NCBI RefSeq assembly: GCF_054482595.1
Contig: NZ_CM137008.1
Direction: 5' to 3' (one strand)
DNA: 64,000 nucleotides
Below the pieces are notes generated by a model. That model saw nothing but the letters and a program-made list of their open reading frames with translations, did not search any database and was not told the DNA's origin. A program made the position numbers and the translations under genes. Every line of letters starts with the position of its first letter. Position 1 is the first letter of the stretch. Shown here piece after piece: positions 5,044-18,345 of this stretch.

Positions 5044-6366
5044 TTATTCGCTGATACGGCGATAGACAGTTGGTGTGCTTTCCGGTGCTTTATCGGCAAG
5101 TTTAATTGCCGCTTTCACCGCTTTCGCCGCTTCCTGCCAGCTGTTTTCGTCTTTCGCGTGGATAACCGCCAGCGGACGCTGACCGTCTACCTGGTCGCCC
5201 AGACGTGCCATATCAGTAAAGCCGACGCTGTAATCGATGGTGTCAGATGCCTGACGGCGTCCGCCGCCCATTGCAACCACTGCCATCCCCAGCGCGCGGG
5301 TATCCATTTCACTGACAAAACCTTCGGTATCAGCATAGACTGCTTTCGTCAGCATCGCTGTCGGCAGATACTTCGCGTAGTTCTCAACGAAGTCGGTCGG
5401 GCCTTTTTGTGCCGCTACCATACGACCAAAGACTTCTGCCGCTTTACCGTTGTCCAGCACCGCCTGCAATTTCGCGCGCGCTTCGGCGTCATCTTTCGCC
5501 AGTTTGCCGGAGATCAGCATCTCCACACACAGCGCCATCGTGACATCAAACAGACGCGGGTTACGATATTCACCCGTCAGGAACTGCACCGCTTCACGAA
5601 CTTCAACCGCGTTACCTGCACTGGAGGCCAGTACCTGATTCATGTCGGTGAGCAGCGCGGTGGTGCGCACGCCAGCGCCGTTAGCCACGCCAACAATCGC
5701 TTCGGCAAGGGCTTCAGAGAGTTCGTAGGTCGGCATAAACGCGCCGCTACCCACTTTCACGTCCATCACCAGCGCGTCCAGACCTTCCGCCAGTTTCTTC
5801 GCCAGGATCGAGGCAGTGATCAGCGGGATGGAGTCCACGGTTGCGGTAATATCGCGGGTCGCGTAGAAACGTTTATCTGCCGGAGCCAGTGAGCTGGTCT
5901 GGCCAATAATCGCCACACCGACGTCTTTAATAATTTCGCGGAAACGGTTGTCATCCGGGAAAATGTCGAAGCCAGGGATGGATTCCAGTTTGTCGAGCGT
6001 ACCGCCAGTATGACCGAGGCCACGACCGGAGATCATCGGAATATAGCCGCCGCAGGCTGCGACCATCGGCCCCAACATCAGCGAAGTGACATCGCCGACG
6101 CCACCGGTGGAGTGTTTATCAACAATCGGTCCATTCAGATGCAGGCTTTTCCAGTCGAGAACGGTTCCTGAATCTCGCATCGCCATGGTCAGCGAGACAC
6201 GCTCAGGCATTGTCATATCGTGGAAGAAAATGGTCATCGCGAGGGCGGCAATCTGCCCTTCGGAGATAGTGTTGTCGCGAATACCGTTGATAAAGAAACG
6301 AATTTCTTCATCGCTCAGCGCATGACCATCACGTTTTTTACGAATAATTTCTTGTGCGAGAAACAA
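5044..6366 (-). CDS. deoA: thymidine phosphorylase DeoA
   Basis: 440-aa [34 protein letters not shown]... Confidence 0.95.
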
Positions 6367-6399
6367 GGTAACCTCCCGAGGAAAAGAGTATGAGGCGGC

Positions 6400-6480
6400 T
6401 TTTGCCGGATGCGTCTACGCCTTATCCGGCCTACGGGTAGATACGTCTCGTAGGCCTGATAAGCGCAGCGCATCAGGCGT
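6400..6480. repeat. REP/BIME-type palindromic element between deoA and deoC
   Basis: GCCGGATGCG...CGCCTTATCCGGCCTACG and GTAGGCCTGATAAGCGCAGCGCATCAGGCG motifs. Confidence 0.75.
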
Positions 6481-6492
6481 AAAGCATCTTAC

Positions 6493-7272
6493 TTAGTAGC
6501 TGCTGGCGCTCTTACCGTCGCCGTGGCCCAGCGCTTTCAGCAGGCTTGCCAGCAGGCTGGAAGCGCCAAAGCGGTAGTGACGCGCATCAGCCCAGTCAGC
6601 ACCGAACAGTTCATCTGCGATGGCGAGATATTTCTGCGCATCTTCCGCAGTACGCACGCCGCCCGCCGGTTTGAAACCAACGGTTTTTTCTACGCCCATA
6701 TCACGGATCACTTCCATCATGATGCGCGCGCTTTCCGGCGTCGCGTTCACAGCCACTTTACCGGTAGAGGTTTTGATGAAGTCCGCACCCGCTTTGATGG
6801 AGATTTCAGACGCTTTACGGATCAGCGCTTCGTCTTTCAGTTCGCCGGTTTCGATGATCACTTTCAGCAGTACATTCGCTGCCGCGCAAGCCTCTTTACA
6901 GGCTTTCACCAGGTCAAAACCAACCTGCTCGTTACCCGCCATCAGCGCGCGGTACGGGAACACAACGTCAACTTCATCAGCACCGTAGGCGATTGCCGCA
7001 CGGGTTTCTGCCAGTGCGATGTCGATGTCGTCGTTACCGTGTGGGAAGTTGGTTACCGTAGCAATACGGATTTCCGGGGTGCCCTGCTCTTTCAGTGTTT
7101 TGCGAGCAATCGGGATAAAGCGAGGATAGATACAGATAGCGGCGGTATTGCCGACCGGAGTTTTGGCCTGATGACACAGAGCAATTACTTTCTCGTCGGT
7201 GTCGTCGTCATTCAGGGTGGTCAGGTCCATCAATTTCAGTGCACGCAGGCTGCTTGCTTTCAGATCAGTCAT
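6493..7272 (-). CDS. deoC: deoxyribose-phosphate aldolase DeoC
   Basis: [52 protein letters not shown]...; start taken at the internal Met (259 aa). Confidence 0.95.
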
Positions 7273-7316
7273 TTCATTCTCCTGGCTTGTCGCCAATAAA
7301 ATTCACCTTGCGAGTT

Positions 7317-7332
7317 TGTTAGTATTCTAACA
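7317..7332. promoter_or_regulatory. DeoR operator (near-perfect palindrome) at deoP2, about 45 bp upstream of deoC
   Basis: TGTTAGTATTCTAACA, one mismatch to the TGTTAGAA/TTCTAACA palindrome. Confidence 0.7.
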
Positions 7333-7529
7333 TCTACTCCGCAACACACTTCGATATACATCACAATTAAGGAAATCTACTTACAAGTTTGCATCACTAT
7401 AATGCGATCTGGTTCAAATAATTCACTTTCAAATGAATGCGTCAGTGGTGGCAAACGCATCAGGATCAAAGTGAACATCACGAAACTTCTTACAATGGCG
7501 CATCACCTTCGGCATAAAAGGAAAAGAAG

Positions 7530-9080
7530 ATGCCCACTTCTCATGAAAATGCACTGCAACAACGTTGCCAGCAAATTGTCACCAGCCCAGTGCTTAGCCC
7601 GGAGCAGAAGCGCCATTTTCTGGCACTGGAAGCAGAAAACAATCTGCCTTACCCACAGCTTCCTGCCGAAGCCCGCCGCGCGCTGGATGAAGGTGTAATC
7701 TGCGATATGTTTGAAGGTCATGCGCCGTACAAACCGCGCTATGTCTTACCCGATTACGCCCGTTTTCTGGCGAACGGTTCCGAATGGCTGGAGCTGGAAG
7801 GCGCGAAAGATCTTGATGACGCACTCTCTCTGCTGACCATTCTTTACCACCACGTACCGTCGGTCACATCGATGCCGGTCTACCTGGGGCAACTGGATGC
7901 GTTGTTGCAACCGTATGTTAGAATTCTAACACAAGACGAGATCGATGTTCGAATAAAACGTTTCTGGCGTTACCTCGACAGAACCCTGCCAGACGCCTTT
8001 ATGCACGCCAATATCGGCCCGTCTGATTCGCCCATTACCCGCGCGATCTTACGTGCAGACGCAGAGTTGAAGCAGGTTTCACCGAACCTGACCTTTATCT
8101 ACGATCCTGAAATCACCCCTGATGACCTGCTGCTGGAAGTGGCGAAGAACATCTGTGAATGTAGCAAACCGCACATCGCCAACGGTCCGGTGCATGATAA
8201 AATTTTCACAAAAGGGGGCTACGGGATTGTGAGCTGTTACAACTCACTGCCGCTGGCGGGTGGTGGCAGCACGCTGGTACGCCTTAACCTGAAAGCCATT
8301 GCCGAGCGCAGCGAATCGCTGGATGACTTCTTTACGCGCACTCTACCGCACTACTGCCAGCAGCAGATCGCCATCATCGATGCGCGGTGTGAATTCCTCT
8401 ATCAACAATCACACTTCTTTGAGAATAGCTTCCTGGTGAAAGAAGGGCTGATTAACCCTGAACGTTTTGTGCCAATGTTTGGCATGTATGGGCTGGCGGA
8501 AGCGGTTAACTTGCTGTGTGAGAAAGAAGGGATTGCCGCGCGCTACGGTAAAGAAGCCGCCGCAAATGAAGTGGGTTATCGCATCAGCGCGCAACTGGCG
8601 GAGTTTGTCGCCAATACCCCCGTGAAATATGGCTGGCAAAAACGCGCCATGTTACACGCACAGTCGGGGATCAGTTCCGATATCGGCACCACGCCGGGCG
8701 CGCGTTTGCCGTATGGCGATGAGCCAGATCCGATCACCCATCTGCAAACTGTCGCCCCGCATCATGCTTATTATTATTCCGGCATCAGCGACATTCTGAC
8801 GCTCGACGAAACCATCAAACGTAATCCGCAGGCGCTGGTACAGCTTTGCCTCGGTGCCTTTAAAGCCGGAATGCGTGAATTTACCGCCAATGTCAGCGGT
8901 AACGATCTGGTTCGCGTTACCGGTTATATGGTGCGTTTGTCGGATTTAGAAAAATATCGCGCCGAAGGTTCACGCACCAACACCACCTGGCTGGGCGAAG
9001 AAGCCGCACGCAACACTCGTATTCTGGAACGCCAGCCGCGCGTGATAAGCCATGAACAGCAGATGCGCTTTAGTCAGTAA
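7530..9080 (+). CDS. yjjI: glycine-radical-enzyme family protein YjjI
   Basis: 516-aa ORF divergent from deoC; recognised as YjjI. Confidence 0.85.
7917..7932. promoter_or_regulatory. DeoR operator (perfect 16-bp palindrome), deoP1-type site lying inside the yjjI reading frame
   Basis: TGTTAGAATTCTAACA; centre is 600 bp from the 7317-7332 site. Confidence 0.65.
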
Positions 9081-9915
9081 GATTATCCCCTTCTCCTGCG
9101 TTGACGGGCCAGGCAGTCGTCTGGCTCTGTTTTTGCAGGGCTGCAATCTGCGCTGCAAAAACTGTCACAATCCGTGGACGATGGGACGTTGCAATGACTG
9201 TGGGGAGTGCGTGCCACAGTGTCCGCATCAGGCGTTGCAGATTGTTGACGGCAAAGTGGTGTGGAACGCTGTGGTCTGCGAGCAATGTGATACCTGCCTG
9301 AAGAGGTGTCCGCAACATGCCACACCAATGGCGCAATCCATGAGCGTGGAGGAGGTGCTTAGCCATGTGCGCAAAGCGGTGCTGTTTATTGAAGGGATAA
9401 CGGTAAGCGGCGGCGAAGCCACGACCCAACTGCCGTTTGTAGTGGCGCTGTTTACTGCCATCAAAAACGATCCGCAACTGTGCCATCTCACCTGCCTCGT
9501 GGACAGTAACGGTATGTTGAGCGAAACCGGCTGGGAAAAATTGCTCCCGGTGTGCGACGGCGCAATGCTCGATCTCAAAGCGTGGGGGAGCGAATGTCAT
9601 CAACAATTAACCGGACGCGATAATCAGCAGATTAAGCGCAGCATCTGTTTGCTGGCAGAGCGCGGCAAGCTGGCGGAACTGCGTTTGCTGGTAATCCCTG
9701 GCCAGGTGGATTATTTGCAACACATCGAAGAACTGGCGGTGTTTATCAAGGGACTTGGCGATGTTCCGGTACGCCTGAACGCGTTTCATGCCCACGGCGT
9801 GTATGGCGAGGCGCAAAGCTGGGCGAGCGCCACGCCGGAAGACGTTGAGCCGTTGGCTGATGCGTTACGGGAGCGCGGGGTGAGCCGGTTAATATTTCCG
9901 GCGCTGTATTTGTGA
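9052..9915 (+). CDS. yjjW: glycyl-radical enzyme activating protein (radical SAM) YjjW
   Basis: 287-aa ORF with Cys-rich ferredoxin-like cluster motifs ([32 protein letters not shown]); overlaps yjjI 3' end by 29 nt. Confidence 0.85.
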
Positions 9916-9916
9916 C

Positions 9917-10125
9917 ATGCCGGATACGGCCTACGGTTCGGCACAGACTTGTAGGCCTGATAAGACGCGTCAAGCGTCGCATCAGGCATTGTGCGCCAAC
10001 TGCCGGATGCGGCGTGAACGCCTTATCCGGCCTACGGTTCGGCACAAACCTGTAGGCATGATAAGACGCGTTAAGCGTCGCATCAGGCATTATGCGCCGA
10101 CTGCCGGATGCTGCCTACGAAGGGC
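9917..10125. repeat. cluster of REP/BIME palindromic repeats (two near-identical units)
   Basis: Tandem duplication of ...GCCTGATAAGACGCG(T/TT)AAGCGTCGCATCAGGCATT...GCCGGATGCGGCGTGAACGCCTTATCCGGCCTACG... Confidence 0.8.
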
Positions 10126-10128
10126 AAA

Positions 10129-10911
10129 CTACCCACGAACGTTAAACACCGCATACGTGTTATTAAGCAACACTTCGGCAATCTCATTCACCGGTTCCCG
10201 GCGCAACTCGCAAAGCACGGCAAACACACGGGCAGCCTGTTCCGGGCGGTTAGGCTGCCCCTGAAAACCGTTGAGCGGCATATCCGGCGCATCGGTTTCC
10301 AGCAACAACGATGCCAGCGGTAATTTTGCGATGACATCGCGGGTTTTACTGGCGCGTGGATAGGTGATAGTACCGCCTACGCCGATTTTGTAGCCCAGCT
10401 GTACAAACCGCTCGGCCTGTTGCAGGCTGCCGGAAAAACCGTGAACCACGCCAGTGCGCGATAAATCGTGGCGTTTAAGATGCATCGCCAGTTTGTCGTG
10501 TGTGCGCCGTGAATGCAGGATCACCGGCAGATCGTAGCGTTTCGCCAGTTTCAGTTGTTCGTCGAGTAACCACTGCTGCCTCTCAAATTGCGGATCGTCG
10601 CCAAAGAGATCCAGACCGATCTCCCCCACCGCCACCACCTTCGCCGGACGCCTTTCCAGCGCCTGCTGTAGCTGCTCAAGAGACACATCGCTATGTTTTT
10701 CCAACATACCAGGATGCAAGCCCAATGCGGCATACAGCGGTTGATAATTTTCCGCTAACGCCTGCACGCGGGCAAAATTTGCCGCCTCGGTTGCCGGAAC
10801 AATGATCTTGCCTACGCCCGCTTGTGCCGCGCGTTGCAGGCTAGCCTCTTCATCACCGCTAAACGGCGGAAAATCAAAATGGCAGTGAGTGTCGATAAAA
10901 CGGCAAATCAA
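10129..10911 (-). CDS. yjjV: TatD-family metal-dependent hydrolase YjjV
   Basis: 260-aa ORF MICRFIDTHCHFDFPPF... (TatD HxH motif). Confidence 0.85.
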   Translation of the reverse strand: MICRFIDTHCHFDFPPFSGDEEASLQRAAQAGVGKIIVPATEAANFARVQALAENYQPLYAALGLHPGMLEKHSDVSLEQLQQALERRPAKVVAVGEIGLDLFGDDPQFERQQWLLDEQLKLAKRYDLPVILHSRRTHDKLAMHLKRHDLSRTGVVHGFSGSLQQAERFVQLGYKIGVGGTITYPRASKTRDVIAKLPLASLLLETDAPDMPLNGFQGQPNRPEQAARVFAVLCELRREPVNEIAEVLLNNTYAVFNVRG

Positions 10912-17732: not shown

Positions 17733-17900
<168 letters not shown>

Positions 17901-18022: not shown

Positions 18023-18109
18023 GCGAAGGTGGCGGAATTGGTAGACGCGCTAGCTTCAGGTGTTAGTGTCCTTACGGACGTGGGGGTTCAAGTCCCCCCC
18101 CTCGCACCA
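18023..18109 (+). tRNA. leuQ: tRNA-Leu (CAG), copy 1
   Basis: 87-nt GCGAAGGTGGCGGAATTGGTAGACGCG...CTTCAGG...GGTTCAAGTCCCCCCCCTCGCACCA with encoded CCA and long variable arm. Confidence 0.95.
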
Positions 18110-18137
18110 AAAACCACGTTGATATTGCTCGCACTGG

Positions 18138-18224
18138 GCGAAGGTGGCGGAATTGGTAGACGCGCTAGCTTCAGGTGTTAGTGTTCTTACGGACGTGGGG
18201 GTTCAAGTCCCCCCCCTCGCACCA
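18138..18224 (+). tRNA. leuP: tRNA-Leu (CAG), copy 2 (one substitution in variable arm)
   Basis: Identical to copy 1 except GTGTTCTTAC for GTGTCCTTAC at 18185. Confidence 0.95.
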
Positions 18225-18258
18225 AACGAGGCGATATCAAAAAAAGTAAGATGACTGT

Positions 18259-18345
18259 GCGAAGGTGGCGGAATTGGTAGACGCGCTAGCTTCAGGTGTT
18301 AGTGTCCTTACGGACGTGGGGGTTCAAGTCCCCCCCCTCGCACCA
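18259..18345 (+). tRNA. leuV: tRNA-Leu (CAG), copy 3
   Basis: 87-nt copy identical to copy 1. Confidence 0.95.

Follow-up and report, generated by a model that had tools for sequence, protein, structure and literature searches.

This study concerns the gene pair yjjI-yjjW (positions 7530-9915) in a stretch of 64,000 nucleotides, hereafter the window, from contig NZ_CM137008.1 of the RefSeq assembly GCF_054482595.1. The reading we favour, to which we give a probability of about 0.55, is that the pair forms an FNR-activated operon for a glycyl radical enzyme (GRE) and its activase, that the enzyme acts on a nucleoside-derived substrate, and that the operon hosts the promoter deoP1 and the operators O1 and OE of the neighbouring deo genes, with cross-regulation by DeoR. 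What the segment holds is the yjjI-yjjW operon of E. coli, known already but with an uncharacterised reaction; to our knowledge YjjI is the last E. coli GRE without an assigned reaction, PflD and YbiW having been assigned recently. Neither the genes and their family assignment nor the deo operators are new. We add that two of the three DeoR operators, together with deoP1, are conserved and constrained yjjI codons, that nucleoside genes accompany the pair in several lineages, and that the catalytic residues set YjjI apart from the characterised GRE classes. The nucleoside context, the embedded operators and the class exclusion are leads rather than discoveries.

The deo control elements inside yjjI

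On the plus strand, yjjI (7530-9080) encodes a 516-residue protein of the YjjI family of GREs and yjjW (9052-9915) its 287-residue radical-SAM activase; the two open reading frames share 29 nt (9052-9080, plus strand, yjjI stop included), probably a region of translational coupling. YjjI scores 732 bits against Pfam PF11230 (YjjI-like; cut-off 23) and 787 bits against TIGR04040 (cut-off 498), exceeding the curated cut-off over its full length, and YjjW scores 397 bits against TIGR04041 (cut-off 250). The stretch 7300-10130 is 100% identical at the DNA level to several E. coli chromosomes, and at least 80% of it is found in 5422 of 5426 complete E. coli genomes. The RefSeq annotation of a 100%-identical E. 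coli chromosome contains the same two coding sequences, with deoC-deoA-deoB divergent from yjjI and yjjV-yjjU-ytjA-osmY on the other flank. The coordinates, gene names and overlap proposed in the initial annotation of this DNA are thus confirmed by open reading frames, family profiles and RefSeq annotation, and so is the position of the pair next to deo: deoC, divergent, starts at 7272, 257 bp from yjjI. Both genes are under strong purifying selection, with ratios of nonsynonymous to synonymous divergence (dN/dS) of 0.04-0.07 for yjjI and 0.08-0.14 for yjjW at saturated synonymous divergence (dS >1).

The initial annotation had also placed a DeoR-operator-containing promoter region between the divergent genes, which holds for one operator only. 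O2, with the -10 element of deoP2 (7317-7332, minus strand; TGTTAGAATACTAACA, no mismatches), is intergenic and conserved in relatives; it precedes the yjjI start codon by 213 bp. The other two operators and deoP1 lie within the yjjI open reading frame. O1 (7916-7931, minus strand) is a perfect palindrome 386 bp inside yjjI, carries the deoP1 -10 element TAGAAT and coincides with codons 129-134 (YVRILT); the upstream part of deoP1 with its -35 region (7932-7967, minus strand) occupies codons 135-146. OE (8195-8210; codons 222-227), a weaker palindrome with the sequence TGATAAAATTTTCACA, lies 665 bp inside the gene. O1 and O2 are exactly 599 bp apart and OE is 279 bp beyond O1, a geometry that reproduces the published deo layout, in which about 600 bp separate O1 and O2 with their tandem promoters and OE follows another 300 bp or so upstream (PMC8053113). 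At the natural spacing, a loopometer study estimated about 72% O1-O2 looping. The DeoR operator consensus has six strand-matches in the window against 1.13 expected, a number reached by none of 100 shuffles. The classical deo region is described by P1/O1, P2/O2 and OE, with DeoR looping and with CytR and CRP acting at P2; here its operators are shown as yjjI codons. The deo operator literature that we searched makes no mention of a gene around these operators, and a review places such E. coli operators in general outside genes (PMC4217526).

In every locus with a deoC neighbour, O1 is found at the same codons with 0-1 mismatch (Escherichia, Citrobacter, Salmonella, Enterobacter, Lelliottia, Leclercia, Kluyvera, Pluralibacter, Pseudocitrobacter, Hafnia and Edwardsiella), and it is absent from every examined yjjI locus without one. 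Synonymous diversity was measured among 20 Enterobacteriaceae yjjI orthologues, for which synonymous divergence is saturated. Against a mean synonymous codon diversity of 0.413, the lowest windows are codons 129-146, covering O1 and the upstream part of P1 (0.07-0.08; 0.08 for codons 138-146), codons 507-516, where the start of yjjW overlaps (0.085), and codons 221-229, at OE (0.12). Only at codons 129-135 and 222-228 does synonymous diversity stay at zero for four or more codons in a row; both runs are seven codons long, and runs of seven or more appeared in none of 5000 shuffles of the yjjI codon columns. O1/deoP1 and OE are therefore conserved and constrained yjjI codons, beyond what coincidence would give. 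The stretch of the YjjI family alignment in which O1 sits is variable and prone to insertions and deletions, so that the DNA site there is easily tolerated by the protein. A milder dip in diversity (0-0.18) was seen at codons 296-302 (8415-8435; TTCTTTGAGAATAGCTTCCTG), where there is no known site and where the left part bears a weak likeness to a DeoR half-site.

Published evidence for a regulator of yjjI concerns FNR, not DeoR or CytR. The gene is listed as a category 1 directly FNR-activated operon, with a chromatin immunoprecipitation (ChIP) peak and FNR-dependent anaerobic induction (PMC3688515), and a study of the HU regulon has yjjI and yjjW changing in concert as FNR-activated genes (PMC2634741). 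Both genes are anaerobically induced in Yersinia intermedia; single-cell data place yjjI in a group with anaerobic respiration genes, and a bicluster built from two species joins it to narG (PMC3228777). Since a consensus scan for promoters and terminators was uninformative (two promoter-like and four terminator-like sites, no more than in shuffles, with deoP1, deoP2 and the candidate yjjI promoter all missed), phylogenetic footprinting was used on the deoC/yjjI intergenic region aligned from ten genera. GGATCAAA (7463-7470) is identical in all ten between diverged flanks, and TACAAT (7491-7496, plus strand), 21 nt away, is nearly identical in the ten and a candidate -10 element. With the FNR-like site cgCATcaggATCAA (7456-7469), centred at about -41.5, these define a candidate yjjI promoter at 7456-7496 (plus strand), and the footprint would fit a class II FNR promoter with its site near -41.5.

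One CRP site of deoP2 and a probable second one share this intergenic region. CRP-1 (7350-7365, minus strand; reverse complement TGTGATGTATATCGAA) is conserved and corresponds to a ChIP-seq CRP site listed for yjjI/deoC (PMC4287617), and CRP-2 (7403-7418, minus strand; TGCGATCTGGTTCAAA) is probable by its similarity to the CRP consensus, with a core conserved across genera. A further CRP site, CGTACCGTCGGTCACA, was reported by ChIP-seq inside yjjI in enterotoxigenic E. coli (PMC4287617) and is found here at 7854-7869 (codons 109-114), just downstream of deoP1; with a synonymous diversity of about 0.6 it shows no synonymous constraint and was set aside as a conserved element.

From the position of these elements, we infer that DeoR and deoP1 would cross-regulate yjjI. 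The O1-O2 and OE-O2 loops made by DeoR would enclose the yjjI promoter, and DeoR bound to O1 and OE would be a potential roadblock to yjjI transcription. Because the deoP1 -10 element lies inside O1 on the minus strand, P1 transcripts would run antisense over about the first 386 nt of yjjI and then over its ribosome-binding site and promoter before entering deoC. Expression of yjjI would then respond to deoxyribose-5-phosphate via DeoR as well as to oxygen via FNR. The gene is a clear example of coding DNA that doubles as promoter and operator, and because the deo looping system lies partly inside yjjI, published deo constructs may affect yjjI, and yjjI deletions such as the Keio allele may affect deo.

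The enzyme and its activase

The identity of the pair as glycyl radical enzyme and activase, also proposed beforehand, is borne out by the family profiles and by the catalytic motifs. The glycyl radical motif looked for at the C-terminus of YjjI is present as R462-V-T-G465-Y (RVTGY, residues 462-466; 8913-8927, plus strand), and the cysteine loop is S235-C236-Y237-N238 (8232-8243, plus strand), with C236 as the predicted thiyl radical. Twenty-three full-length homologues, 33-90% identical to the query, were aligned, and 30 columns proved invariant; R462, G465, S235, C236 and N238 are the same in all 23, and further invariant polar residues are E62, R70, Y71, D123, D150, H159, N186, T196, R251, E305, H376, Q378, D384 and R392. 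A single-sequence search of the PDB gave no meaningful match for YjjI or for its distant homologue P0130, and matches were obtained by the family-profile search and by a fold search of structures. The structure model has the ten-stranded alpha/beta barrel of glycyl radical enzymes, with the cysteine loop and the glycine loop each placed between short strands, and its fold is nearest to that of class III ribonucleotide reductase (RNR). YjjI is thus a genuine and compact GRE (516 residues) and YjjW is its activase, the formation of the radical being predicted from the conserved residues.

YjjI belongs to a small family. Among 1.84 billion cluster representatives scanned with HMMER, 541 proteins matched at E <=0.001, only about two dozen of them full-length representatives. 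The family contains two deep clades, as Pasteurellaceae proteins group with those of Clostridia and Erysipelotrichaceae (55-58% identity to the protein P0141, which is itself only 36% identical to E. coli YjjI). This pattern suggests horizontal transfer, and the 'orthology' of Haemophilus HI0521 and yjjI would therefore be loose. One 574-residue database protein (P0004), from a 2.9-kb NCBI contig, joins a PF11230 (YjjI) domain and a PF01791 (DeoC-type aldolase) domain; since yjjI and deoC are divergent at the present locus, this fusion is probably a mis-assembly or a mis-called open reading frame.

YjjW carries the radical-SAM cluster motif C31-X3-C35-X2-C38 (9142-9165, plus strand; Pfam Radical_SAM and Fer4_12), followed by a ferredoxin-like insert (9190-9309, plus strand; Fer4_9, Fer4_7 and Fer4) with two CX2CX2CX3C motifs formed by C47/C50/C53/C57 and C76/C79/C82/C86; the Fer4-type matches span residues 44-90. 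The multiple cysteine clusters and extra ferredoxin-like domains described at the outset therefore resolve into one SAM motif and two ferredoxin-type motifs. In 79 of 80 related loci the gene directly after yjjI encodes a YjjW homologue, and distant yjjI homologues have an adjacent radical-SAM activase wherever the contig allows. The long, three-cluster form of the activase (280-303 residues) is that of E. coli and most Proteobacteria. A short form (247-262 residues, without ferredoxin matches beyond Fer4_12) was seen in archaeal, actinobacterial, Pasteurellaceae and Erysipelotrichaceae loci and in one unassigned locus, L096 (the others being L082, L092, L098 and L099).

Genomic neighbourhoods and the substrate

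The statement in the initial annotation that the YjjI/YjjW substrate has no assignment still holds for the literature searched, and its hint at nucleosides was followed through the neighbourhoods of 80 related loci from species-representative genomes and of contigs with distant homologues. Genes of nucleoside uptake or catabolism stand beside yjjI-yjjW in five independent lineages, which strengthens this hint. In Enterobacteriaceae, Hafnia and Edwardsiella, deoCABD is divergent from yjjI, and in eight Enterobacteriaceae/Hafniaceae loci a NupC-family permease gene (504 bits, cut-off 442) follows yjjW. Gilliamella has add-cpdB-cdd-pdp-(ushA)-yjjI-yjjW on one strand, the products of the upstream genes being adenosine deaminase, CpdB, cytidine deaminase, pyrimidine-nucleoside phosphorylase and, in some species, UshA, whose gene ends 15 bp before yjjI. 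Actinobacillus equuli (L098, 8001-11618) has yjjI-yjjW-nupC on one strand, with a gap of 33 bp between yjjW and nupC. On a metagenomic contig (L090), whose YjjI is 36% identical to that of E. coli, genes for a RihC-like hydrolase, an ADP-ribosylglycohydrolase-family protein, a ribokinase-like kinase and a DeoD-type phosphorylase (278 bits, cut-off 230) lie upstream on one strand, followed on the same strand by a sulfatase-family gene, yjjI, yjjW and genes for a major facilitator superfamily (MFS) transporter, a Bmp-family binding protein and an ATP-binding cassette (ABC) ATPase. Finally, in L088 and L089 the pair stands beside a RihA/C-like hydrolase gene, ABC permease genes and an ADP-ribosylglycohydrolase-family gene. 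If about 6% of random genes qualify, a rough estimate of the chance of finding such neighbours in 5 of about 16 lineages is about 2 in 1000.

Several points weigh against the reading proposed here. Nucleoside neighbours are absent in Vibrionaceae, Shewanella, Providencia (Morganellaceae), Rhodobacteraceae, an actinobacterial lineage of Ilumatobacteraceae type, an archaeal contig and several others, and annotation of the Vibrionaceae, Shewanella and Providencia neighbourhoods for hidden nucleoside genes found none. The enterobacterial deo adjacency may be kept by the shared DNA and then counts as one observation. The literature searched yielded no functional study of the pair, no experiment showing its glycyl radical, no biochemical or genetic link between YjjI and a substrate and no effect of DeoR or CytR on yjjI. 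In the FNR-like site the right half ATCAA is conserved, but the left half matches poorly and varies among the genera, and the published FNR study gives no transcription start for yjjI (PMC3688515). Finally, the mapping of YjjI residues onto the class III RNR NrdD, given below, depends on an hhalign alignment of low probability (13%, E 0.002).

The main rival accepts the enzyme pair as real and holds that its substrate is unrelated to nucleosides, the adjacency to deo having been frozen by shared regulatory DNA; YjjI would then act on some other anaerobic metabolite, for example one linked to nitrogen oxides or nitrate, as proposed from the co-expression with narG. The many lineages without nucleoside neighbours speak for it, as do the acetaldehyde and alcohol dehydrogenase genes found instead in Shewanella, the genes for an MFS protein and a glycerophosphodiester phosphodiesterase found in L086, and expression compendia in which yjjI clusters with nar and nrf genes, a pattern for which a role in nitrogen metabolism has been put forward (PMC3228777; PMC2634741). 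Such co-expression, however, is expected of any FNR-activated gene, and four of the nucleoside contexts (Gilliamella, Actinobacillus, L090 and L088) owe nothing to the deo overlap. We regard this alternative as possible but doubtful.

In the lineages without nucleoside genes, the Vibrionaceae neighbours are a LysR regulator, MoeA and FolE. In Shewanella (L050), yjjI is immediately preceded on its own strand by the gene of the acetaldehyde dehydrogenase ExaC (953 bits, cut-off 900), and next to exaC lies a Zn alcohol dehydrogenase gene (6277-7797 and 5044-6021 in that locus). A link through acetaldehyde, which is the product of DeoC, to this ExaC neighbour is speculative. A LysR-family regulator gene (cluster c16) stands beside the pair in Vibrionaceae, Shewanella and another gammaproteobacterium (loci L042, L045, L046, L048, L050, L051, L053, L054, L056 and L064); its product may be a regulator dedicated to the pair, and knowing its effector could disclose the substrate of YjjI.

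The nucleoside-derived substrate that we favour is suggested by the nucleoside genes of the five lineages taken with a fold nearest to class III RNR, and would be a nucleoside, a pentose, a pentose phosphate or a released base. In the mechanism proposed, YjjW would reductively cleave S-adenosylmethionine and abstract hydrogen from G465, the glycyl radical on G465 would generate a thiyl radical on C236, and this thiyl radical would abstract a hydrogen atom from the substrate. With the search for a substrate confined by the comparative context to nucleosides, pentoses and nucleobases, a direct biochemical screen becomes feasible.

Beyond the operon, the interval between yjjW and yjjV (9919-10114) holds two direct repeats of about 95 nt, of the repetitive extragenic palindrome/bacterial interspersed mosaic element (REP/BIME) type, 89% identical and 101 bp apart, with a match to Rfam naRNA4 (RF02564) at 9954-10032 on both strands. 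Because of these repeats, the 2.8-kb query was placed at a median of 38 sites per E. coli genome. Elsewhere in the window, Rfam matches at gathering score are a further naRNA4/REP element (17802-17884, minus strand), three tandem tRNAs (18023-18342, plus strand) and the SymR antitoxin RNA (39968-40044, minus strand).

Comparison with known glycyl radical enzymes

As the fold of YjjI is RNR-like, an alternative is that it is a minimal class III RNR, either a backup of NrdD or a nucleoside or pentose-phosphate reductase working with formate and feeding deoxyribose to DeoC. In T4 NrdD, the second catalytic cysteine C79 and the Zn site are important, as learned from mutagenesis. The T4 nrdD gene was taken from the phage record, its intron was spliced out and the product was aligned with the YjjI profile by hhalign, which gave E 0.002 over 378 collinear columns but a probability of 13% only. 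The Pfam NRDD profile gives E. coli YjjI 11.1 bits, below its gathering score of 26.2, and matches 15 of the 23 YjjI relatives at E <=1 (best E 3e-15). In the alignment the T4 thiyl cysteine C290 falls on YjjI C236. In this low-confidence alignment the C79 position, by contrast, is V72 in YjjI (V or I in 22 of 23 homologues), N311 falls on G246, and the T4 Zn site CFTC...CSIC has no YjjI counterpart, C440 being the only cysteine in the last 180 residues of YjjI. YjjI also lacks an ATP-cone, and YjjW, with 287 residues and three cluster motifs, resembles activases of the PflC/CutD type and not the small NrdG. Because the reductase residues are missing, the chemistry of YjjI is probably, as judged from the alignment, not nucleotide reduction, and we consider a minimal RNR improbable.

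The family profile of YjjI has pyruvate formate-lyase (PFL) as its best sequence match in the PDB (E 0.003), and older annotations of Haemophilus HI0521, which has been described as a pflB homologue, would make YjjI a PFL-type 2-keto-acid formate-lyase. The likeness lies in the two loops: YjjI YGIVSCYN aligns to PFL YAIACCVS, so that C236 corresponds to C419 and S235 to C418, and VRVTGY aligns to IRVSGY, with the radical glycine at PFL G734. Like PflB/PflA, YjjI/YjjW is, on the published data, an anaerobic enzyme system under FNR control. The match is, however, confined to the cysteine-loop and glycine-loop regions, the Cys418-Cys419 pair of PFL is replaced by the invariant Ser235-Cys236, and YjjI is about 240 residues shorter and belongs to a separate Pfam family (PF11230), which makes a formate-lyase of this type very unlikely. 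The last and weakest alternative, that yjjI is decaying or dispensable in E. coli and kept only as a carrier of deoP1, O1 and OE, has in its favour that no phenotype is reported and that deo elements constrain parts of the sequence, but this relic reading is rejected on the dN/dS of 0.04-0.07 at saturated dS, with the gene intact in 5422 of 5426 genomes, regulated by FNR and holding 30 residues invariant even in lineages without a deo neighbour.

The remaining class of comparison is that of the GRE eliminases, among which a C-x-E motif is conserved (PMC7077986). Glycerol and propanediol dehydratase, CutC, HypD, IslA and the E. coli proteins PflD and YbiW belong to this class; in place of the motif YjjI presents C236-Y-N238, with the Asn invariant. 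The readings of YjjI as a true RNR, a PFL or an eliminase are each rejected on catalytic residues: a defining catalytic feature of each class fails, and YjjI is accordingly filed under none of them, despite its RNR-like fold. Since its cysteine loop, as read from the alignments, fits neither PFL, nor the eliminases, nor class III RNR, the reaction of YjjI may be new. We suggest, tentatively, that YjjI represents a new branch of GREs, one which would combine an RNR-like barrel and an S-C-Y-N loop with non-reductive, nucleoside-derived chemistry in anaerobic catabolism, gated by DeoR/deoP1 and FNR.

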